64,000 nucleotides of DNA from Candidatus Kerfeldbacteria bacterium (GTDB lineage: Bacteria; Patescibacteriota; Patescibacteriia; SBBC01): assembly GCA_043799405.1 (NCBI GenBank), contig JAZDNT010000003.1, forward strand, positions 143,461-207,460, read 5' to 3'. Position 1 is the stretch's first letter. The number at the start of each line of letters is the position of its first letter. The translations under genes and the position numbers were made by a program. The notes under the pieces were generated by a model, which saw only the letters and a list, made by a program, of their open reading frames with translations, made no database searches and was not told the DNA's origin. Below, piece by piece: positions 24,423 through 38,529 of the stretch.

Positions 24423-24567
24423 TGTCACGGCGCTTTTTCCCTTCATACCGCGCTCAGCATACCATTTTTTCATGCTCTGTGCAATGTTCCTTGACACTCG
24501 CTCTATAGAGCGAGTACAGTTACGCACGGTAATTGCACAAGACGTTGACACCTCGGAAACGCCGGAG

Positions 24568-24591
24568 GGGGCCGAAAGCGGCGCCCTTTTT
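24568..24591 (+). promoter_or_regulatory. Terminator-like hairpin plus T5 in the pyrB leader (candidate attenuator)
   Basis: GGGGCCG-aaag-CGGC(G)CCC (24568-24586) is followed by TTTTT (24587-24591), about 155 nt upstream of the pyrB ATG. An alternative hairpin GCCCTTT(24583-24589)/AAAGGGC(24595-24601) competes for the same bases. Confidence 0.35.
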
Positions 24592-24747
24592 CATAAAGGG
24601 CGAGCGACTGAATTGTTTCTGTCGCGTCCGTTTGAGGCGGGTCGGACGCTGCGTCCTGAGCTACGTCGAAGGACGCCGTACGACCCTCAACACCTGACGG
24701 CTCGTTTCATAAACGTACACAGCGCGCTTCCAGGGAGGAACCACCTA

Positions 24748-25740
24748 ATGGAGCCTTTCGATGGATTTCCGCATGTCCTCCAGTCGCAGCAGTTCCATCC
24801 TGAAACGCTCGAGAGGATCTTCCTCGTCGCCGACGCGATCCGTTCGGCACCGGAACGCTTCTCGAACGCGCTCGCAGGGAGAAAGGTTGCCGTACTCTTC
24901 AACCAGCCGTCGTCACGGACCCGCGCCTCGTTCCAGCTCGCGGCGCAGAACCTCGGAGCAACCGTCTACGCTGAATCGAACATGGCGCTGTTCTCGTCCG
25001 AGGTCAAGGGTGAGACGCCCGAAGACACGGCGCGGATGTTCGTCGAGTACGGATTCGACTACTTCGTGCTTCGGCTCAAGCAGCCCGGAGCTATCACCCG
25101 CGTCGCAGAGGTCGTCGGCCGCGACCATCCCGTCATCAATGCCGGCGGCGGCATAGACCAGCACCCGACACAGGCGCTGCTCGACCTGAACACAATCTGG
25201 CGCGAGAACCATGATCTCAACCGGCGCATCGTCATCCTCATGGTCGGCGACCTCGAGAACGGAAGGACGGTCCGCAGCCTAACGTACCTCATGGCGAAGT
25301 ACCCCGGCGTGGAGTTCGTCTTCCTCTCCCCGTCATCGGCACAGATGCGGCAGGACTTGCTCGACCATCTGAACGAGAATGGCCGTCAGTACGCGGTACG
25401 TCTCGATGCGTGCATCGGTCGCGTCGTCGTCGAGTTCAACCCTGACATCGTGTACATGACACGGGCGCAACTCGAAACGATCGATGATCCCGGGAAGCGG
25501 GCACAGCTCGAGGGTGACTACAAGAACCTCATCCTTACTCCGGACGTCGCGGACCAGCTCAAGCCGGAAGCGATCATTCTTCACCCGCTGCCGCGCGGCC
25601 CCGAACTCCCTCAGGAGATCGACGGTAACCCCCGGAGCCGGTACTTCAGCCAGATGGGCAACGGCCTGTGGCTCAGGACAGCCCTCTTCGAGCGCATCGA
25701 GGAGACGATGAAGCGGCTTCTCATCAGAATCCACGACTGA
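24748..25740 (+). CDS. pyrB: Aspartate carbamoyltransferase catalytic chain
   Basis: SSRTRASF (S-T/R-T-R carbamoyl-P motif), HPTQALLDL and HPLPRGPELPQEID (HPLPR is the ATCase rather than the OTCase form). ATG 24748 follows SD GGGAGGAA (24733-24740). The 92-codon upstream extension in the ORF track has no homology. Confidence 0.88.
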   Translation: MEPFDGFPHVLQSQQFHPETLERIFLVADAIRSAPERFSNALAGRKVAVLFNQPSSRTRASFQLAAQNLGATVYAESNMALFSSEVKGETPEDTARMFVEYGFDYFVLRLKQPGAITRVAEVVGRDHPVINAGGGIDQHPTQALLDLNTIWRENHDLNRRIVILMVGDLENGRTVRSLTYLMAKYPGVEFVFLSPSSAQMRQDLLDHLNENGRQYAVRLDACIGRVVVEFNPDIVYMTRAQLETIDDPGKRAQLEGDYKNLILTPDVADQLKPEAIILHPLPRGPELPQEIDGNPRSRYFSQMGNGLWLRTALFERIEETMKRLLIRIHD

Positions 25741-25907: not shown

Positions 25908-28688
25908 TCACAATTCTTTTGCTGTTTCGACCCTGATCTGCCCACCCGGCTCGAGCACAGCGACATCACGCCGGCTGAGTTTACCTGTGAGCAGGAACGT
26001 CGCGAGGGCATTATCAACATTTTCTTGTAAGACCCGCCGCAACGGACGTGCGCCATAGACAGGGTCAAAACCGGCCTGCGCGATCTCATGCAGCGCTTCC
26101 GGCGTTGCGCGGAGCGTGATGCCGCGACGCTCAAGGCGTTTCGCGATCTTCGTAAGCATCAGTTCTGCGATCTGTTCTATCTCCTCTTCGGAGAGCGGCC
26201 TGAACACGATCACGTCGTCGAAGCGGTTCAGAAGTTCCGGCCTGAAGTATCGACCGAGCGTCGTCTCAAGGAGCTCGACGCGGATCTGCTCGATCATTTG
26301 TCCTTGTTTGATGCGCTGCTGGATAAGATCGGTTCCTGCGTTCGACGTCGCAATAATGATCGAATTCGTGAAGTCAATGGTACGGCCGCTCGAATCGGTA
26401 AGCCTCCCGTCGTCGAACACCTGAAGGAAAACGTTGAGGATATCCGGATGCGCCTTCTCGAGCTCATCGAGGAGAATGAGTGAGAAGGGATTGACGCGAA
26501 CCGCCTCGGTGAGATATCCGGTCGTCGACCCTTGGTACCCTGGCGGTGCGCCGAGGAGCCGCGCGATGCTCGATGAATCCTGGTACTCCGACATGTCGAG
26601 CCGGATCATATTGCGCTCGTCGCTGAAGTACACCTCGGCGACGGTCTTCGCGAGCTCGGTCTTTCCAACGCCGGTCGGTCCTAAGAACAGGAACGCTCCG
26701 ATCGGCCTCGAGAGATCCCGAAGCTCAGCACGCGAACGCCTGAGTGCGTTCGCTACGGCCTTTACAGCGTAATCCTGGCCGACCATCCGTTCGTGCATCC
26801 GTTCCTCAAGGTGCAGCAGTTTCGTCGCTTCATCCTCGCTTACTGCTGCTACGTTCGCGTTCGTCCGTCTGCTGATGACGGCCGCGGCGTCTTCATCGGT
26901 AACGACCGAGTTCGTCCCCTTCGAAGCGCGAACGTACGCACCAACTTCTTCAAGGAGCGTGAATGCCTTTTCGGGGAGCCGACGGTCGTGGATGTACCGT
27001 ACGGAGAGCTCAACGATCTTCTCGATCGCTGCGTACAGGAAAAAGACCTTATGCCGATACTCTACCGCGCCGCACTTCGATTCGAGGATCTGTATCGCGA
27101 CATCGGGAGACACCTCGTCGATGTTGATCTTTTCGAACGACGTGAAGAGGGCAGAAGGCTCAAGGTAGTGACGGTAGCCCTCGTTCGTGGTCGTCGCAAA
27201 AGCGACGAACGAACGGCTCTCGAGGACCTTTCCGAGGATGGAGGCAAGGTCGAGCGACTCGCCCGAGACCGTTGAAACGCCGACGAGCTCATGGATATCC
27301 TCGATGGCAAGCACGATGTTCCCGGACTTAACTATCTCGACGATGATCTCCTGGAGGCGCTCCTCGAGGCTGCCGGCACCGCCGGTACTGGCAACGAGCG
27401 ACGTTACCGAAAGTTGCACGAGGCGCTTATCCTGAATGACCTCAGGAACATCCTCGGCTGCCATGCGTTCCGCAATCGCGTAGAGCATGCTCGTCGTCCC
27501 GACGCCCTTCTCACCGACAAGGATGACGTTGTGCCGCCCGCTCTCAACGACCCTGAAGACGTCCTCGATCTCGCGTTCGCGATCGACCACGAGAGGCAGC
27601 GTGCCGTGCCTCGCTCGGAGCGTCAGGTCAGTGCTGAAGTGATCGAGGGTCGGCGTTGCCTGTGCGGTCATCGCTCGGTCCATCCCGCCCTTCGGTTTGT
27701 TCAGTGCCCGCACGCGAAGCCTCGAAAACGCATGGAAGAGACGGCGCTGCATGAGCGCCCAGAGGACGACGTTGTGCACCTTCTCCTTATCCGCTTTCAG
27801 ATCGAAGAGGATCTCCTGTACGATCGACGGTTCGCACGACAGTGCTTCGAGGATGTGCGGAGAGGTCACCTGAAGCATGCGGTCGTCTTGCGCGCGTTCG
27901 TACGCCCGTGCGAGTACCGCACGTGATGCCCTGCTCAACCTTGGTTCTTCCTTTCCCTTGACTACCTGCGCAAGTGCGCGCTTTATCCGGTCACGGATTG
28001 CGCTGTGACTGACGCCGAGTCGCATGAGCGCAAGCGTCACATCGTTATCGAGCGTCGAAACGGCAATGATGTGGATCGGTTCGAGAGTTTCGTGCCGCAA
28101 ACGCAACGCGAACTCGAACGCCTGTTCAATGAGCGACAGTGATGGACGCGTGTACGATAGGCTTACGTCGATGGCCTTTCCTTGCTCAACGCCCTCGATC
28201 CGGTCTGTATTCGGCGGGAGTTCGACGAGGGGCAGAGGTTCAACCGGAACCACCGTATGCCTCGAACGATCGAGACGGTAGAAGATGTAGAGGTCTGCGA
28301 GCAATGACAGCCAGAACACCAGCATGTACCCGCTTCGTAGCATTATGAGATCCTGCAGCATTCTCGGGATCTCGAGCAGTCCTCCGCTTATCATATCGAT
28401 CGCGTAGAGCGAGTAACTTCCGTATACGCCGACGATAGCGCCGATGATCCCGAATGCAAGAAAGAGCGCGTCGATTGTCGTCCTTGTCGTGCGTTCGATT
28501 TTCTCCTCGAGCAGGTGGAGCTGATCGACTGCCTTCCCCCACGTAAGCCACGTCGTTCCGTTCCAGAGGTACTGTCCATACCCATGGCACGATGCGCACA
28601 TTGAGGGTCCCTTCGGGCCAACGACGAACCCGTCGCCCTGGCAGATTGCGCACGTGACCCGAACGTTCTTTTTCGTAGGATCAGCCAT
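25908..28688 (-). CDS. Membrane-anchored Clp/Hsp100-family AAA+ ATPase with an N-terminal DnaJ-type zinc finger
   Basis: CAICQGDG and CASCHGYG (CxxCxGxG x2), two TM helices and Clp_N-like repeats. NBD1 has Walker A GEKGVGTTS and Walker B LAIEDIH. NBD2 has intact GPTGVGKTELAK and LILLDELEKAH, plus the C-terminal ClpB_D2-small domain. The likely start is MADPTKK (ATG 28688), which forms an ATGGCTGA overlap with the upstream gene's stop. Confidence 0.85.
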   Translation of the reverse strand: MADPTKKNVRVTCAICQGDGFVVGPKGPSMCASCHGYGQYLWNGTTWLTWGKAVDQLHLLEEKIERTTRTTIDALFLAFGIIGAIVGVYGSYSLYAIDMISGGLLEIPRMLQDLIMLRSGYMLVFWLSLLADLYIFYRLDRSRHTVVPVEPLPLVELPPNTDRIEGVEQGKAIDVSLSYTRPSLSLIEQAFEFALRLRHETLEPIHIIAVSTLDNDVTLALMRLGVSHSAIRDRIKRALAQVVKGKEEPRLSRASRAVLARAYERAQDDRMLQVTSPHILEALSCEPSIVQEILFDLKADKEKVHNVVLWALMQRRLFHAFSRLRVRALNKPKGGMDRAMTAQATPTLDHFSTDLTLRARHGTLPLVVDREREIEDVFRVVESGRHNVILVGEKGVGTTSMLYAIAERMAAEDVPEVIQDKRLVQLSVTSLVASTGGAGSLEERLQEIIVEIVKSGNIVLAIEDIHELVGVSTVSGESLDLASILGKVLESRSFVAFATTTNEGYRHYLEPSALFTSFEKINIDEVSPDVAIQILESKCGAVEYRHKVFFLYAAIEKIVELSVRYIHDRRLPEKAFTLLEEVGAYVRASKGTNSVVTDEDAAAVISRRTNANVAAVSEDEATKLLHLEERMHERMVGQDYAVKAVANALRRSRAELRDLSRPIGAFLFLGPTGVGKTELAKTVAEVYFSDERNMIRLDMSEYQDSSSIARLLGAPPGYQGSTTGYLTEAVRVNPFSLILLDELEKAHPDILNVFLQVFDDGRLTDSSGRTIDFTNSIIIATSNAGTDLIQQRIKQGQMIEQIRVELLETTLGRYFRPELLNRFDDVIVFRPLSEEEIEQIAELMLTKIAKRLERRGITLRATPEALHEIAQAGFDPVYGARPLRRVLQENVDNALATFLLTGKLSRRDVAVLEPGGQIRVETAKEL

Positions 28689-29073
28689 TGAAGCGTATGA
28701 ACTGATAGACGACCTCATATACGACGAACGGCATAAGAGCGAGCCACACGAGGAATCCGGCGAAGAGCAGTACCGTCCATATCGCCAAACCGACGAACCG
28801 GAAAGCGAACACGATGATGCGGACGAAAAAGCTGATGATACGGCCGCTCTTGCTGTAGTCGCCGTACATCGGTTTCCCTATATTACGCACGAGGATCGGG
28901 ATCGAGAGACGGTTGAGTATCGAGAGGAACTCCTGCCAGATAAAACGTGCTGCATTCGCTGTTCCTGTCGTATACCACCAGAACGGAAAACGGAATACGT
29001 CAAAAACAACGTCGCTGAACACGAACCGCAGTGCTCTTCCCATGACCGATTGTGTTGGTTTTATGCCCGCCAT
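28681..29073 (-). CDS. Small membrane protein, translationally coupled to the Clp-like ATPase
   Basis: 130 aa with 2-3 hydrophobic helices. Its stop overlaps the Clp-like start (ATGGCTGA). Confidence 0.6.
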   Translation of the reverse strand: MAGIKPTQSVMGRALRFVFSDVVFDVFRFPFWWYTTGTANAARFIWQEFLSILNRLSIPILVRNIGKPMYGDYSKSGRIISFFVRIIVFAFRFVGLAIWTVLLFAGFLVWLALMPFVVYEVVYQFIRFNG

Positions 29074-32962: not shown

Positions 32963-33949
32963 TCAATGACACGTTCCTCTACCCATATCCCGGAACTCGC
33001 TGCCCGCGACCGGAATAAAGTCCCATTCGTATCCTGCCGGATGGAGAATGAGCTTTAGCGCGCCGAATGTTGTATTATTTCGTGCTTCACTTGTCGGAAG
33101 TATGTTATTGAAATTGTAGAGCACGTTCCCGCCGCCGGTACCGACGATAAATTCACGGATACCCTTCTGTTCATCCTTTGTGCCGTTCGCGTCCATCGGC
33201 GCAAACCGCTCATAGAGATGGTCATGGCCGGTAAGCACGACATCGACGCCGTTCTCCGCCATCAAGCGCCAGAACGTCTGCATCGCCGTGTCGCTCCCGT
33301 GAGTCCCGGAACTGAACCGTGGAACGTGCATGTACGCAAGCGTGCATATCGATCCGTTCGATGCAAGATCCGCCTGAAGCCATCGCGCCTCAGGAGAATC
33401 CTCGCCACAGCCGCCGATATCGCTGCAGTTTGTGTTCAGTGCTACGACATGCCATGTACCGATATCATAGCTGTAGTACCCTTTCGTCGGATCCCCCGCG
33501 CTCGTACCGAAATACTCGAAATACGCCGATGCATTCGGCGTTCGATACTCATGGTTTCCGGGTACCGGCCTGGTGCGCGAACGATGCGCTCCCCACGTCG
33601 TTCCGTAGCACTCCTTGAACTCCTGGACGCTGCCGGACGGATACGCTTCATCGCCGAGCGCTAGGATCATCCCTTCGGTCCTTCCTAGGATCGCAGCGGT
33701 CTCTTCGCTTCCCTTTACTCCACAGGTTGCGATATCGCCTGCAGCAAGAACGACAGGATCGCTCGACGGGGCTTCGACGGCATTCTCTTGCTGACCACCG
33801 GTGCTGACCGGCCGGTAGTGGTACCGTTGCCATGCCCACGTACCGATTCCTAACACGATCAGTGCGGTAGTGAAAAAGACTAAAATGCCCTTATACACTG
33901 TTCGTTCTTTTTTTGTGCCAAACATTGTAGGCCTCGAACACGGGCGCAA
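32963..33949 (-). CDS. Calcineurin-like metallophosphoesterase, membrane-anchored/secreted
   Basis: Motifs GDIATCG, LGDEAYP, PGNHEY and GHDHLYERF, with an N-terminal TM helix. An alternative start lies at M9 (33925). Confidence 0.85.
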   Translation of the reverse strand: MRPCSRPTMFGTKKERTVYKGILVFFTTALIVLGIGTWAWQRYHYRPVSTGGQQENAVEAPSSDPVVLAAGDIATCGVKGSEETAAILGRTEGMILALGDEAYPSGSVQEFKECYGTTWGAHRSRTRPVPGNHEYRTPNASAYFEYFGTSAGDPTKGYYSYDIGTWHVVALNTNCSDIGGCGEDSPEARWLQADLASNGSICTLAYMHVPRFSSGTHGSDTAMQTFWRLMAENGVDVVLTGHDHLYERFAPMDANGTKDEQKGIREFIVGTGGGNVLYNFNNILPTSEARNNTTFGALKLILHPAGYEWDFIPVAGSEFRDMGRGTCH

Positions 33950-34325
33950 GATTATCGATCAGCGGGTACTCGTGGTAGTGTATTGGATCGATCCATTGGT
34001 ACTCATCATGATCCCTGCTCAACGTTACGCGTTCAGTCGGCGACGTACAGGAAAAGAACGTTGCAATGATCTGCCACTCCTCGCCGCGAACGACCGGCCT
34101 CCACTCACCGACGAAAAATGGTTTTCCGAGTTGCGCATCGATCCCTGTTTCCTCATGGATTTCGCGCTTGAGCGTTTCATCAAAACGCTCACCGGGCTTA
34201 ACGCGTCCACCGACGACATCATACTTCCCCGCGTTCGTCCCGTCAGGGTTTTTCGCGGATTCACGCACAATCAACACGTTTCCTCTATACACAAGGAACG
34301 CCTTCATAGCAACGAGCTGCTTCAT
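33891..34325 (-). CDS. NUDIX hydrolase
   Basis: Nudix box GGRVKPGERFDETLKREIHEETGI. 144 aa. Confidence 0.85.
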   Translation of the reverse strand: MKQLVAMKAFLVYRGNVLIVRESAKNPDGTNAGKYDVVGGRVKPGERFDETLKREIHEETGIDAQLGKPFFVGEWRPVVRGEEWQIIATFFSCTSPTERVTLSRDHDEYQWIDPIHYHEYPLIDNLAPVFEAYNVWHKKRTNSV

Positions 34326-37300
34326 GCGCGGCCGAACAGCACCTTCCTGCCGTCTAGCTCGGCAACGACCACTGGTTCGCCGACATCATCAGCTCTGTTG
34401 AGCGCCGAGAGGCTCCCCTTTTCCTTAAGCGTCTTCTTGAAGTGCTGAACGTACAGCACGATATCATCGTCGACCTTGAAGCGGGCTGCGAGAGGTTCTC
34501 CCGGTTTCAGCCGGAGTTCCTTTCGCAGGGCGTTCACCGCTCTCACCATTTCACGGAGATACCCTTCTTCTCTGAGTTCATCGGTTACGGTTTTGTCGAG
34601 AGCAACGCCGTTCAGAGAGACCCATTCGCCTCCTTCAGGGAGTTTCTTCATCGCTACGATCTGTTTCACATTCAGCTCGTCTTTCAGGATGCCAATGATG
34701 GTGTTACGGAACTCCTGCGTCACGACCAGCTGTGACAGCGGCTGCCGTACCTTCAACTTCGCGGACGCCCTAAGCGCATGTCCTGTTTCAACGACATTTC
34801 GGGCACGCGCCATGTTCACGAGGAGTTCGTTATGGATCTCTTCCGGTTGTGGCCACTGTTCAAGGTGCACCGATGCTGCGGCTCCGAGCGAGCGCCAGAG
34901 CGCATCGGTAAAGAACGGCGTAAATGGAGCTGCGAGTTTCGCGTATTCGCGCAAGACGTACCCGAGAGTACCAGCGACAGCAGCGCGTCCTGCGCCTTTT
35001 GCCCGTTCACGCGATCTCCGGACGTACCATGTCGACAGGTCGGTCACGAACGATACGAGCTCTCGCGCCGCATCGACGATCCGGTACCCCTCGAGCGCAT
35101 CGGTCACCGTTGCCGTCGTCTTATCGAGGAGGGAAAGGACCCACCGGTCCATGACATCTTCGCTCTCGGGCCTATCCACTGGTGCCGATCCTTTCGTATG
35201 CAGCCTCCAGAAGCTCAATACGTTCCAGAGTATCATGAAATGTTTCTTCACCACTTCCGAGAGCTGGCTCTCGTCGAAGTTCTTCGGTTCAGAAGGCTGG
35301 TTGATGGTGAAGAGGTACATGCGCACCGCGTCCGCTCCGTACTTATCGAGGAGCACCATGGGGTCGATGTAGTTGCCGAGGCTCTTCGAGAGCTTCTTGC
35401 CTTCGCGGTCCCTGATGTGACCGAGCACGACGCACGTCTCGTACGGCGGACCGTCCTTCACGGCGCCTGCTTTCTGCAGGAACGTTGCGATCGCGAGCAG
35501 CGTATAGAACCACCCGCGCGTCTGGTCGATCGCCTCACTGATGAACGCAGCAGGATACGCCTTTCCGGCGTCGATCATGTCTTTTCGTTCGAACGGATAG
35601 TGCCGCTGTGCGAACGGCATTGAGCCGGAATCAAACCACGTATCCGCGACCTCCGGAACGCGCATCATCGTGCTCCTGCACTTCGGACAGGGATATGAAA
35701 TTGAATCAATGAAGGGGCGGTGCGGATCGAAGCTGCCGTCAGGACGGAACACAGACGCCGGAAACCTCACCTCGATCGGCTCGGCGAACGACGGATACTC
35801 AATTTCATTGATCTGCGATTCTGCCTTAATGCTCGCAGCCCATAGCGCGACGAGAATGGGGTCGCAGTGCGAGACAACGACAATGGTCTTCCCCTCGTAC
35901 TTCGCGTCAATCTCTCTAAGGAATCCCATGAAACGTTTCCGTACATCGAACCAGGTCTCGGTTGCGCCTTCGGGCATCTCGTGGAACCTCGAAACGTGCG
36001 GGAGGAACTCATGGTACTCCTTCGTCGTCTTTCCTTCGAATTTTGGACCGATCTGGTACTCATCGAGCCGCGAGTCGGTCGTGACGGTTACGCCGCACTC
36101 TGCAGCGATGATGTCAGCGGTCTGTTTCGTCCGGACGAATTCAGACGAGTACACCGCGTCTATATGCGCTTTCTTAAGCTTCTTCGCGGTCTTTTTCGCC
36201 TGCGAGATCCCCTTTTTCGTAAGGACTATGTCGCTGTTCTTGGTGATATCAGTATTGATAAGGTCATGAACGGAGATCGTCGCCTCGCCGTGGCGCACGA
36301 GGATGATCCGGTTACGTACCGGCATTTTTGACAGGAGTTCTTTGTAGCTCCCGATGCACTCACGGTGATCGCACGCGATGCACCTCCAGATCGGCAAGGG
36401 CGTTCCCCAGTACCGTTCACGCGAGATCGCCCAATCCTTTACCTCGCGGAGCCACTCGCCGAACCGTCCGTCCTTGATGTGCTTCGGTACCCAGTTAATT
36501 TTCTCGTTGTTTGCAATGAGCTCATCGCGAAGCTTTGACATCGTTATGAACCACGACGTCTTCGCATAGTATAAAAGCGGCGACTTACAACGCCAGCAGA
36601 ACGGGTAGTCGTGTTCATACAGTTCTTCTTTGTACAGCTTGCCATTGTCCTGTAGGTATTTCACAATCCCGTCCTCAACTGCTTTGTCCTTCACGTACTT
36701 CCCCTGCCACGGTTTCACGAGCTCGTTGAACTTTCCGGTTTCATCAACCGTATGCTTTTTCGGCAAATCCAATTTCTGTCCTAGATTGAAGTCATCTTCA
36801 CCATACATCACCGCAGTGTGAACAACGCCAGTTCCTTCTTCCGTGGTGACGAAATCCGCTGCGGTAATATAGTACGATTTCTTTCCAGTCTCTTTGCCTA
36901 AGTCAAGAAAATCAAACAGTGGTTTATACTGTTTGCCAACCAACTCGCTCCCTTTTTTCCTCCACACTATCGTTAAGGCGAGTCCGTCGGGTGCACCTTT
37001 TGATAAAACGCCCCCCAGACGCATTTTCCCTTTGGCGACCTCTGCAAGACGACTACTCGCTACAATGATGCATTCCCCTGAGCTAAACTTCGCCTTTACG
37101 TAGTCAATATTCGGATCGATTGCCAACGCGACATTGCCCGGCAAGGTCCACGGTGTCGTCGTCCATGCGAGGATGAACGTCCCTGGCTCATCGACGAGCT
37201 CGAACTTCAGGTACACTGCGCGGTCCTTTACGCGCTCGTACCCCTGCGCGACCTCATGGCTCGAGAGCGCCGTACCGCACCGGGGGCAGAACGGTACGAC

Positions 37301-37816
37301 CTTATAGTCCTGGACGAACAGCCCGGCATCCCACGCCTTCTTCAAAATCCACCAGAGCGTCTCGATGTAGTCGTTCGTGTAGGTGATGTACGGATGCTCC
37401 ATATCGATCCAGAACCCGATGCGCTCGGTCATCCGCTCCCAGAGGTCTTTATACTTCCAGACGTTCTTCTGGCACTCCTCGTTGAACTTCGCGATTCCGT
37501 ACTTCTCGATGTCTTTTTTACCGGAAACGCCGATCGCCTTCTCGACCTCGAGCTCGACAGGAAGCCCCTGCGTATCCCAGCCGGCCTTCCGCACGACATG
37601 GAAGCCCTGCATCGTCTTGTACCGCGGGATCAGGTCTTTAAATGCGCGTGTTTCAACGTGTCCGATGTGCGGCATGCCGTTCGCGGTCGGCGGACCTTCG
37701 AAGAACACGAAATCGCCCTTCGGAGCCTCCTTATCCAGGATCTTTCTGAAAACGTCCTCATCCTTCCACTGCTTCAGAACGCCCTTCTCAAGTTCGACAA
37801 TATTGAGTACTGCCAT
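34322..37816 (-). CDS. ileS: Isoleucyl-tRNA synthetase with an inserted histidine-phosphatase domain
   Basis: HIGH (PHIGH), editing-domain blocks (WTTTPWTLPGN; TGVVHTAVMYGEDD), KMSKS (KLSKSLGN) and WFDSGS. An approximately 190-aa RHG...SH histidine-phosphatase module sits at ORF residues 518-705. The likely start is MAVLNIVELEK (ATG 37816), and the ORF is open to 37873. Confidence 0.95.
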   Translation of the reverse strand: MAVLNIVELEKGVLKQWKDEDVFRKILDKEAPKGDFVFFEGPPTANGMPHIGHVETRAFKDLIPRYKTMQGFHVVRKAGWDTQGLPVELEVEKAIGVSGKKDIEKYGIAKFNEECQKNVWKYKDLWERMTERIGFWIDMEHPYITYTNDYIETLWWILKKAWDAGLFVQDYKVVPFCPRCGTALSSHEVAQGYERVKDRAVYLKFELVDEPGTFILAWTTTPWTLPGNVALAIDPNIDYVKAKFSSGECIIVASSRLAEVAKGKMRLGGVLSKGAPDGLALTIVWRKKGSELVGKQYKPLFDFLDLGKETGKKSYYITAADFVTTEEGTGVVHTAVMYGEDDFNLGQKLDLPKKHTVDETGKFNELVKPWQGKYVKDKAVEDGIVKYLQDNGKLYKEELYEHDYPFCWRCKSPLLYYAKTSWFITMSKLRDELIANNEKINWVPKHIKDGRFGEWLREVKDWAISRERYWGTPLPIWRCIACDHRECIGSYKELLSKMPVRNRIILVRHGEATISVHDLINTDITKNSDIVLTKKGISQAKKTAKKLKKAHIDAVYSSEFVRTKQTADIIAAECGVTVTTDSRLDEYQIGPKFEGKTTKEYHEFLPHVSRFHEMPEGATETWFDVRKRFMGFLREIDAKYEGKTIVVVSHCDPILVALWAASIKAESQINEIEYPSFAEPIEVRFPASVFRPDGSFDPHRPFIDSISYPCPKCRSTMMRVPEVADTWFDSGSMPFAQRHYPFERKDMIDAGKAYPAAFISEAIDQTRGWFYTLLAIATFLQKAGAVKDGPPYETCVVLGHIRDREGKKLSKSLGNYIDPMVLLDKYGADAVRMYLFTINQPSEPKNFDESQLSEVVKKHFMILWNVLSFWRLHTKGSAPVDRPESEDVMDRWVLSLLDKTTATVTDALEGYRIVDAARELVSFVTDLSTWYVRRSRERAKGAGRAAVAGTLGYVLREYAKLAAPFTPFFTDALWRSLGAAASVHLEQWPQPEEIHNELLVNMARARNVVETGHALRASAKLKVRQPLSQLVVTQEFRNTIIGILKDELNVKQIVAMKKLPEGGEWVSLNGVALDKTVTDELREEGYLREMVRAVNALRKELRLKPGEPLAARFKVDDDIVLYVQHFKKTLKEKGSLSALNRADDVGEPVVVAELDGRKVLFGRA

Positions 37817-37929
37817 AGAACAAGTCTCCGCTGTTGCTCGCAGCCGATTCAGATGTGTCTCTGACTTCCGCACTGCGATATATCAGATCGCATCATCAGC
37901 ATAGCAAACCAGAGGAAAAATGAAAATAG

Positions 37930-38529
37930 CTAGAGCATTCTTTTGAGAATGCTCTTATTGAGCCATACGTACGGCTCCCGTCCATAACTCTCGGACATAT
38001 CATGCTTCCGATAATTGTATTGAATATAATTGACTACGTTGAGAAGGTCTTCACCGTTTACCACGTGTCGTAGATGATACCGCCGCTGCCAGACATGCCC
38101 CGACATCATCGCTCGAGAAAACGTTCCCTTCATTGAGCGCATCAAATCTCCTAAGGATCCGGGTGCTCTCGAAAGAGCACCCTTGGTATGGGGTGAAGAT
38201 AACCGCTCCCCGCCCTTACGCGCCTTCCGACGTGCTGTTTCAAGGGGTGCCCTGGAAAAAGTGGCGTCGACGTTGAGCAACGAAAAATCGATTGCTTCCC
38301 CACCCTGTGCCCAGGGCATTCTTTCCAGAATGCCCTGACGTATTACCAGAAGATGAGCGTGGTCCGGCAAAATACAAAATCCGAGCAGGGTGAATCCTTT
38401 CGTTTGACAGGCCAATCTGATCATGGTGGCAAATCTATACGCCAAACGAACATCACTGAACAACCGTCGGCGGTCCTTGGTCACGGTGGTGATGAAATAG
38501 GCAATCGGAAATTCAACAATCGGGCGCAT
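37930..38529 (-). CDS. HUH/Y1 (IS200/RAYT-like, COG1943-type) transposase-like protein
   Basis: The HUH motif (ILPDHAHLLV) and C-terminal catalytic-Tyr region (WQRRYHLRHV...VVNYIQYNYRKH) are as in transposase_17/RAYT proteins. It is a single gene with no IS605-type tnpB partner. Confidence 0.7.
   Translation of the reverse strand: MRPIVEFPIAYFITTVTKDRRRLFSDVRLAYRFATMIRLACQTKGFTLLGFCILPDHAHLLVIRQGILERMPWAQGGEAIDFSLLNVDATFSRAPLETARRKARKGGERLSSPHTKGALSRAPGSLGDLMRSMKGTFSRAMMSGHVWQRRYHLRHVVNGEDLLNVVNYIQYNYRKHDMSESYGREPYVWLNKSILKRML

Follow-up and report, generated by a model that had tools for sequence, protein, structure and literature searches.

The window considered here is a stretch of 64,000 nucleotides of contig JAZDNT010000003.1 from a Candidatus Kerfeldbacteria bacterium, and its ileS gene, for isoleucyl-tRNA synthetase (IleRS), appears to encode two enzymes in one polypeptide, since a predicted histidine phosphatase lies within the synthetase. 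Aminoacyl-tRNA synthetases are among the most conserved enzymes, and their accretion of new catalytic domains is familiar from eukaryotes but rare in bacteria. The locus therefore raises a key question: is the phosphatase an accident of the assembly, a passenger caught in a tolerant loop, or a dedicated partner of isoleucine charging? The comparisons presented below establish an old, inherited architecture of Patescibacteria (candidate phyla radiation bacteria), not an assembly artefact, and lead us to lean towards the last of these possibilities.

The initial annotation, made from the sequence of the window, described a single uninterrupted IleRS open reading frame (ORF) of 1164-1183 aa, and this was borne out by the ORF itself and by TIGR00392 and Pfam scans. 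The frame 34322..37873 on the minus strand has no interruption; an in-frame GTG at 37873 gives 1183 aa, and the shorter product of 1164 aa (Table 1), whose numbering is used below unless the ORF is named, is identical to the public protein P0040 (Candidatus Kerfeldbacteria), annotated as a 'class I tRNA ligase family protein'. The whole protein reaches 831.1 bits on the NCBIfam model TIGR00392 ileS (cutoff 621.4), and Pfam divides the tRNA-synt_1 match (6e-113) into two stretches around His_Phos_1, followed by Anticodon_1 and DUF5915. The synthetase motifs, described earlier as intact, are present as HIGH, TTTPWT (the editing motif) and KLSKS, and all three are invariant or nearly so in the family, as judged by an invariant-column test on 99 relatives. 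The ileS gene is one gene for a type-2 IleRS that is predicted to be functional, and it encodes the sole IleRS found in the window.

The inserted domain had been placed at 35759-36322, that is, at ORF residues 518-705 or residues 499-686 in the 1164-aa numbering, and an insertion at this position was confirmed. The hidden Markov model (HMM) scan proposed at that stage returned a strong match to His_Phos_1 (Pfam PF00300) nested inside an intact IleRS, with E = 1.8e-34 and 119.5 bits against a gathering threshold of 21.7 over ORF residues 523-686, and with E = 4.5e-36 when the domain was scanned by itself. The GC content over the insert (0.53-0.57) is the same as in its flanks. An intein or mobile-element insertion was also considered and rejected, because the phosphatase fold accounts for the whole insert and there is no shift in composition.

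Another important question is whether the same arrangement exists outside this assembly. The search with the full-length protein revealed dozens of proteins of 1110-1270 aa with 45-69% identity and both Pfam domains, whose records are named Kerfeld-, Komeili-, Terry- and Pacebacteria or Patescibacteria, while relatives of 950-1035 aa without PF00300 were also among the matches. In a MAFFT alignment of the 120 top protein matches, which is the basis of the linker-length counts, the spacer of the zinc knuckle is bimodal, with 193-216 aa in 95 proteins and 7-23 aa in the remaining 25, and the long form always occupies one constant site; the claim that other IleRSs have only a short linker here holds. 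Among 80 loci from species-representative genomes, the embedded domain was present in 61, and the lineages carrying it include Parcubacteria and Yanofsky-, Nealson-, Ryan-, Giovannoni-, Harrison- and Falkowbacteria. Compared with the window protein, the insert is 39.5% identical and the IleRS core 57.1%, and the two values are correlated (r = 0.79); because insert identity tracks core identity in this way, the insert behaves as a vertically co-inherited segment under constraint. The search of related genomes suggested by the initial annotation thus found an identical insertion site in dozens of independent assemblies, and since independent assemblies repeat the architecture at one site, misassembly is excluded.

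The insertion lies between C479-x-x-C482 and C710-x-x-C713, and all four cysteines are invariant or nearly so. They match the zinc motif of the CP3 subdomain of Thermus thermophilus IleRS (PMC7191050; the subdomain naming, including CP3, is also used in PMC11685878). CP3 forms the connection from CP2 to the C-terminal half of the Rossmann fold and differs in topology from one IleRS to another (PMC7191050). The phosphatase is therefore placed in a loop of the surface-exposed, zinc-binding CP3 subdomain.

Several records in these comparisons carry unexpected labels. The IleRSs of L005, P0100 and P0146, which bear the insert, and of L065, L071 and L072, which lack it, cluster with Patescibacteria enzymes, whereas the labels found in this group are Acidobacteriaceae, Gammaproteobacteria, Marinimicrobia or Baltobacteraceae; these are probably mis-binned or mislabelled metagenome-assembled genomes. 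Many labels of the form 'uncultured Candidatus Saccharibacteria' look generic. An apparent 'split gene' at locus L077 proved to be only N-masking and was rejected as such.

Is the phosphatase associated with IleRS only as an insert? A phmmer search with the insert against 1.84 billion cluster representatives gave 698 matches at E <= 1e-10, and the best 150 of them, which were looked at, are IleRS-length proteins, fragments and proteins of ~190 aa. Every long match checked is an IleRS, and no valyl-, leucyl- or methionyl-tRNA synthetase was seen among the long insert matches checked. On an HMM of the embedded domain, the short proteins of ~190 aa reach 140-220 bits, compared with at most 118 bits for generic histidine phosphatases, and in a neighbour-joining (NJ) tree the free-standing and embedded copies form one clade, apart from the generic phosphatases. 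A profile protein search indicated that this free-standing family comprises at least 1867 clusters at 90% identity. In all nine contigs examined, the free-standing gene lies upstream of a type-2 ileS that has no insert and shares its strand; the two genes abut in eight cases (according to called or inferred gene starts), and one ORF lies between them in the ninth. The block common to the nine contigs is rplT-rpmI-infC / smpB / argS / phosphatase / ileS / recO, and the window and its close relatives possess the same block with the phosphatase within ileS instead.

Other details of these loci are as follows. A conserved 296-aa protein with no Pfam match is encoded directly upstream of the free-standing phosphatase in L081 (5020-5910) and L084 (5033-5923), and free-standing phosphatases with a double domain are represented by P0210, P0227, P0243, P0289 and P0306. 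In the window, an IS200-like Y1 transposase family gene (PF01797, E = 8.8e-11; 37930-38529, minus strand) is situated directly upstream of ileS, occupying the argS-ileS slot that holds the free-standing phosphatase gene in other lineages.

The distribution of the two forms is uneven. In an NJ tree of IleRS cores, adjacent-type IleRSs appear at at least four separate positions, interleaved with the embedded type, and parsimony on a crude tree suggests roughly 19 changes of state. Some IleRSs bear two, three or four His_Phos_1 domains (P0164, P0212, P0186, P0217, P0219, P0234, P0273, P0174 and P0180 have between two and four), and the catalytic set is intact in all resolved copies. In P0273, P0219, P0234 and P0186, one copy occupies a second, independently colonised site in the stretch from KMSKS to the anticodon-binding domain (residues ~836-882). 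In P0281 (1382 aa), a NUDIX domain (residues 226-343) is inserted at the start of the CP1 editing domain in addition to the CP3 histidine phosphatase, so that the sequence predicts a three-enzyme polypeptide. At the other extreme, no phosphatase was present within 6 kb in 18 of the 19 insert-less reference loci. Lineages have thus switched between embedded and adjacent forms, duplicated the domain up to four times, colonised a second site, or lost the phosphatase.

The next issue is whether the insert is a complete and potentially active enzyme. The motifs quoted in the initial annotation (RIILVRHGEAT, SSEFVRTKQTA, LDEYQIGPKFEG, VVVSHCDPI and the IleRS segment PIWRCIACDHRECIGSYKEL) were all found in the window protein. 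In the 95 embedded domains, conservation is at least 95% for every residue of the catalytic set (Arg and His of RHG, the second Arg, Glu and the second His), and the same set is invariant in the free-standing family; this conservation, which extends to all resolved tandem copies, supports the catalytic competence predicted earlier. At the position of E586, Glu is found in 91% of embedded and free-standing copies taken together, whereas the generic outgroup mostly has Asp. The claim of a full phosphatase signature stood for the quoted motifs and the catalytic set but not for the phosphate pocket, where the position a few residues after RHG is Asn in 83 of the 95 embedded relatives and Ser in eight, the window protein and its sub-clade being among those with Ser; since not every branch of the histidine phosphatases is defined by this Asn as a catalytic residue, the Ser is a caveat rather than an exclusion. 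The family also has motifs of its own, namely N-x-Y before RHG, LT-x-x-G and SHGDP.

Structure prediction agrees with this assignment. The AlphaFold2 (AF2) model of the full-length protein, built on a 99-sequence alignment, has a mean predicted local distance difference test score (pLDDT) of 93.3 and a predicted TM-score (pTM) of 0.88, with values of 96-98 over the insert, and the isolated domain was modelled at a pLDDT of 92.6. The sole low-confidence stretch (pLDDT <50) covers residues 265-278 (36983-37024, minus strand), a glycine-rich loop (GKMRLGGVLSKGAPDG) in the CP1 editing domain that looks lineage-specific. The domain has an alpha/beta fold with a cap according to AF2 and Foldseek, and its nearest solved structure is the phosphoserine phosphatase PspA of Hydrogenobacter (4ij5; query-normalised TM-score, TMq, 0.84; root-mean-square deviation, rmsd, 2.4 A), followed by the mycobacterial glucosyl-3-phosphoglycerate phosphatase GpgP, Entamoeba EhPSP and PhoE. 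We therefore regard the insert as a complete PhoE/PspA-like histidine phosphatase by sequence and predicted fold.

The curated NCBIfam equivalogs do not extend this assignment to a specificity. The domain scores 102 bits on dPGM_arch (NF038349; cutoff 225), 33 bits on pgm_1 (TIGR01258; 81.7), 75 bits on the CobC alpha-ribazole phosphatase (TIGR03162; 162.9), 71.5 bits on the PspA phosphoserine phosphatase (NF045917; 350), although PspA is the closest solved structure, and 33.6 bits on the SixA phosphohistidine phosphatase (TIGR00249; 74.5), and the free-standing relatives reach 92-97 bits on dPGM models and 86-94 bits on CobC. All these scores lie below the curated cutoffs, so that the domain is assigned to none of the specificities modelled. 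In the charge analysis for a tRNA-binding signature, the embedded domains proved slightly acidic (mean net charge -2, positive in only 26%), and no such surface was suggested.

Compared with PhoE, PspA and GpgP (1h2e, 4ij5 and 4pz9), the embedded domain shares the capped fold (TMq 0.80-0.84, rmsd 2.4-3.0 A) and the R-H...R...E...H set, but it has only 21-27% identity to them, scores below the equivalog cutoffs and carries its own motifs; its family is, moreover, tied to ileS, as insert or upstream gene, in the loci examined.

Taken together, the occurrence of fused and operon forms, their persistence through rearrangement, the second site and the amplification of copies are the classical hallmark of functional partners, and we regard the phosphatase as a dedicated accessory of IleRS in Patescibacteria. 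The reading that we hold, with modest confidence, to be the probable one is that the inherited embedded domain is a dedicated and, as its conserved residues and family membership suggest, catalytically active partner of IleRS, acting probably on a small phosphorylated compound. By analogy with the family, the phosphate would be held by R508, R562 and H650, attack of H509 on a phosphomonoester would yield a phospho-histidine intermediate, and E586 would donate a proton to the leaving group; through tethering, the phosphatase would reach a higher local concentration at IleRS. The resemblance of fold and cap to small-molecule phosphatases, together with the slight acidity of the domain, favours as the most likely substrate a small, soluble molecule that is phosphorylated and encountered at the synthetase, over tRNA or a protein. 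Our leading guess, though a tentative one, is a compound of nucleotide type that arises from the activation reaction as a by-product or inhibits it. The initial annotation had named as candidates a nucleotide, an aminoacyl-adenylate, a (p)ppApp-type ligand or a regulatory role.

Several observations weigh against a dedicated partner. All nine adjacency cases belong to one conserved synteny block (argS-x-ileS-recO), so that adjacency could partly reflect shared ancestry rather than selection. The 18 insert-less loci without a nearby phosphatase make the association dispensable for IleRS function, and a search for IleRS core residues that co-vary with the presence of the phosphatase, which might have marked an interface or a cis target, found none. 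The sequences are divergent and the NJ trees built on them crude, the domain falls under every curated equivalog cutoff, the copy in the window has Ser in place of the usual pocket Asn, and the guess about the substrate is built on fold analogy only.

How, then, do other explanations account for these data? Among them, the one that survives best, although we consider it doubtful, is that an unrelated housekeeping phosphatase or mutase (a phosphoserine phosphatase or dPGM) from the ancestral operon was caught in a permissive loop and that fusion means co-expression only. The best family matches (archaeal-type dPGM, CobC and PspA) and the best structures (phosphoserine and glucosyl-3-phosphoglycerate phosphatases) are those expected of such an enzyme, CP3 should tolerate insertions because its topology is variable among IleRSs (PMC7191050), and the many losses of the phosphatase and the lack of co-varying IleRS residues fit equally well. 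However, an upstream gene would be expected to fuse end to end and not into an internal loop, the association has outlasted repeated switches between adjacent and embedded states, a second internal site has been occupied with copies rising to four, the scores lie far under the dPGM, PspA and CobC equivalog cutoffs, and the pTM of the full-length model suggests defined docking of the domain on the IleRS body.

An unlikely alternative is that the domain is a repair or immunity phosphatase for macromolecules that restores charging capacity in cis, either by taking phosphate or pyrophosphate off the 3' end of tRNA-Ile (after cyclic-phosphate-leaving nucleases or pyrophosphorylating toxins) or by dephosphorylating IleRS itself, for example at a KMSKS-loop serine hit by HipA-type kinases. 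Known toxin activities include the phosphorylation of class I synthetases and the pyrophosphorylation of CCA ends of tRNA; our literature search found no support for a link of such toxin phosphorylation or pyrophosphorylation to the present domain. The two insertion sites flank KMSKS in sequence, with CP3 before it and residues ~836-882 after it, several catalytically intact copies would suit the stepwise removal of multiple phosphates, and a Nudix domain (a pyrophosphohydrolase) is co-embedded in P0281, while a Nudix gene overlaps the ileS stop codon in the window. On the other hand, the fold and cap are of the small-molecule type and not those of cap-less protein phosphatases such as SixA, the domains are acidic on average, there is no reason for tRNA-Ile or IleRS alone to need such mending, and the Nudix neighbour is not kept beyond the closest relative. 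The most specific form of this idea, a synthetase whose phosphatase strips (pyro)phosphate placed by toxins or phage defence from the tRNA-Ile 3' end or the KMSKS loop, is in our estimate quite unlikely; if true, an essential translation enzyme would be self-healing, with Nudix co-insertion and multi-copy variants serving pyrophosphorylated or multiply phosphorylated targets.

It is improbable that the domain is a regulatory or sensor module, in which a phosphorylated metabolite bound with or without turnover would tune IleRS allosterically to the energy or carbon state. Histidine phosphatase domains form the regulatory halves of bifunctional enzymes such as PFK-2/FBPase-2, which provides a precedent, and the placement of the domain in the catalytic-domain insertion is predicted to be rigid with confidence; yet the whole catalytic set is strictly conserved, including the nucleophile and the acid/base, which points to turnover and not mere binding, and the free-standing form would require a stable complex with IleRS in order to regulate it. 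Finally, a chimeric contig or annotation error that placed a phosphatase gene into ileS has practically no chance of being the explanation, given that independent projects and assemblers yielded the in-frame, site-constant architecture in 61 loci of reference genomes and in ~95 clusters of proteins, and given the uniform base composition across the junctions and the confident full-length AF2 model.

It remains to place this architecture among known systems. The best match of the full model in the Protein Data Bank is IleRS2 of Priestia megaterium (8c9d; target-normalised TM-score, TMt, 0.83), followed by the yeast and T. thermophilus enzymes, and none of the solved structures matched by the full-length model has the additional phosphatase domain. 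The window protein resembles the type-2 IleRSs (P. megaterium 8c9d and T. thermophilus 1ile; eukaryote-like, of the mupirocin-resistant type) in fold (TMt 0.83-0.89, 33-35% identity), in HIGH, KMSKS and the CP1 editing motifs, in two Cys4 zinc sites and in DUF5915, but a domain of ~200 residues takes the place of their short CP3 knuckle linker. Scores on the MupA/MupB models are 717-755 bits against a cutoff of 1900, which places the protein outside those families. The existence of the model NF040702 (ileS_w_GNAT, 'isoleucine--tRNA ligase, N-acetyltransferase domain-containing') sets a precedent for accessory domains inside IleRS; like the window protein, its members combine an extra enzymatic domain with IleRS in one polypeptide, but this domain is a GNAT and not a phosphatase, and the window protein, at 287 bits against a cutoff of 1999, is a non-member. 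IleRS seems prone to gaining accessory enzyme domains.

Fusions of His_Phos_1 to enzymes that handle nucleotides or nucleic acids are likewise known in MutT1 (Nudix plus histidine phosphatase; NF052459), Rv2228c-type RNase H/acid phosphatases (NF005567) and PFK-2/FBPase-2, but these are end-to-end fusions, and none involves an aminoacyl-tRNA synthetase; on the MutT1 and Rv2228c-type models, the window protein scores 22.6 bits (cutoff 475) and 81 bits (cutoff 326), respectively. The pairing of Nudix and histidine phosphatase seen in MutT1 recurs in P0281 and in the Nudix neighbour of the window gene. Both parts of the protein thus belong to well-known families, and what is unusual is their combination, with one enzyme nested in the catalytic domain of a class I synthetase. 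In agreement with the initial annotation, which knew of no described synthetase with an embedded phosphatase, we found no published description of the IleRS-phosphatase architecture in the full-text literature searched, which lacks most subscription journals. Public sequences with both Pfam domains pre-computed are abundant, so that the architecture has been seen but left unremarked. New here are the free-standing operon form, the variants with two to four copies, the second site, the Nudix co-insertion and the losses.

These data place a second, apparently active enzyme within an essential synthetase across a large part of Patescibacteria, the pairing recurring in hundreds of related genomes, and on comparative grounds they argue strongly that isoleucine charging and the hydrolysis of phosphate esters are functionally linked in a way not recognised before. 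By-product clearance, regulation or damage repair may thereby come to light as an additional layer of translation in organisms with minimal genomes. The natural split and fused versions, with one to four copies, are directly testable material, and CP3, as a permissive insertion site, is useful for synthetase engineering. The coordinates of the features are presented in Table 1.

Table 1 Features of ileS and its embedded phosphatase in the window (residues in the 1164-aa numbering, unless the ORF is named)
Feature	Residues	Coordinates	Strand	Remarks
ileS coding sequence, type-2 IleRS with embedded phosphatase		34322..37816	minus	ATG at 37816, 1164 aa
N-terminal IleRS part (Rossmann first half, CP core Zn site, CP1 editing domain, CP2, first half of CP3)	1-494	36335..37816	minus	Pfam tRNA-synt_1, residues 32-517 of the 1183-aa ORF; invariant columns
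HIGH	50-53	37658-37669	minus	(nearly) invariant in 99 relatives
CP core Zn site, CPRC/CWRC		37277-37288 and 36587-36598	minus	
TTTPWT, CP1 editing motif	219-224	37145-37162	minus	(nearly) invariant in 99 relatives
CP3 zinc knuckle, first half, C479-I-A-C482	479-482	36371..36382	minus	C479 invariant, C482 nearly so
Inserted segment	495-694	35735..36334	minus	bimodal linker length; encloses 35759-36322
His_Phos_1 as matched by Pfam	504-667	35816..36307	minus	
RHG motif, predicted catalytic Arg and nucleophilic His	R508-H509-G510	36287..36295	minus	
Second phosphate-binding Arg (predicted), SSxFxR motif	R562	36131..36133	minus	100% in family
Presumed general acid/base, RLxE motif	E586	36059..36061	minus	
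Second catalytic His (predicted)	H650	35867..35869	minus	100% conserved; VSHCDP in the window, SHGDP in the family
CP3 zinc knuckle, second half, C710-P-K-C713	710-713	35678..35689	minus	C710 invariant, C713 nearly so
C-terminal IleRS part (HRPFID, WFDSG, Rossmann second half, anticodon-binding domain, type-2 DUF5915)	695-1164	34322..35734	minus	
KLSKS	808-812	35381-35395	minus	(nearly) invariant in 99 relatives

Downstream of ileS, a gene for a 144-aa Nudix hydrolase (33891-34325, minus strand) starts 4 nt inside the ileS stop codon, an overlap that suggests translational coupling, and it is followed by a gene for a 328-aa calcineurin-like metallophosphoesterase with an N-terminal hydrophobic segment (32963-33949, minus strand). 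Both genes also come after ileS in L085, the closest relative, whereas P0046 and P0049 lack this pair there, and L084 has a Metallophos gene after ileS. Among the relatives checked, only the window and this closest relative have a Nudix gene immediately after ileS, while in nine of the 80 loci a Nudix gene is found 2-6 kb upstream of ileS. A conserved Nudix-ileS link was considered and rejected in favour of a lineage-specific one, given its absence downstream in P0046 and P0049, although the Nudix domain within P0281 is still a curiosity.

Two further ORFs of the window are longer than their domains require. In a ClpB-like ORF of 936 aa (25908-28718, minus strand), the Clp_N match begins only at residue 200, and in an aspartate/ornithine carbamoyltransferase-like ORF of 422 aa (24472-25740, plus strand), ~100 residues precede the first domain; in each case the excess may be an N-terminal extension or simply reflect an ORF called too long.

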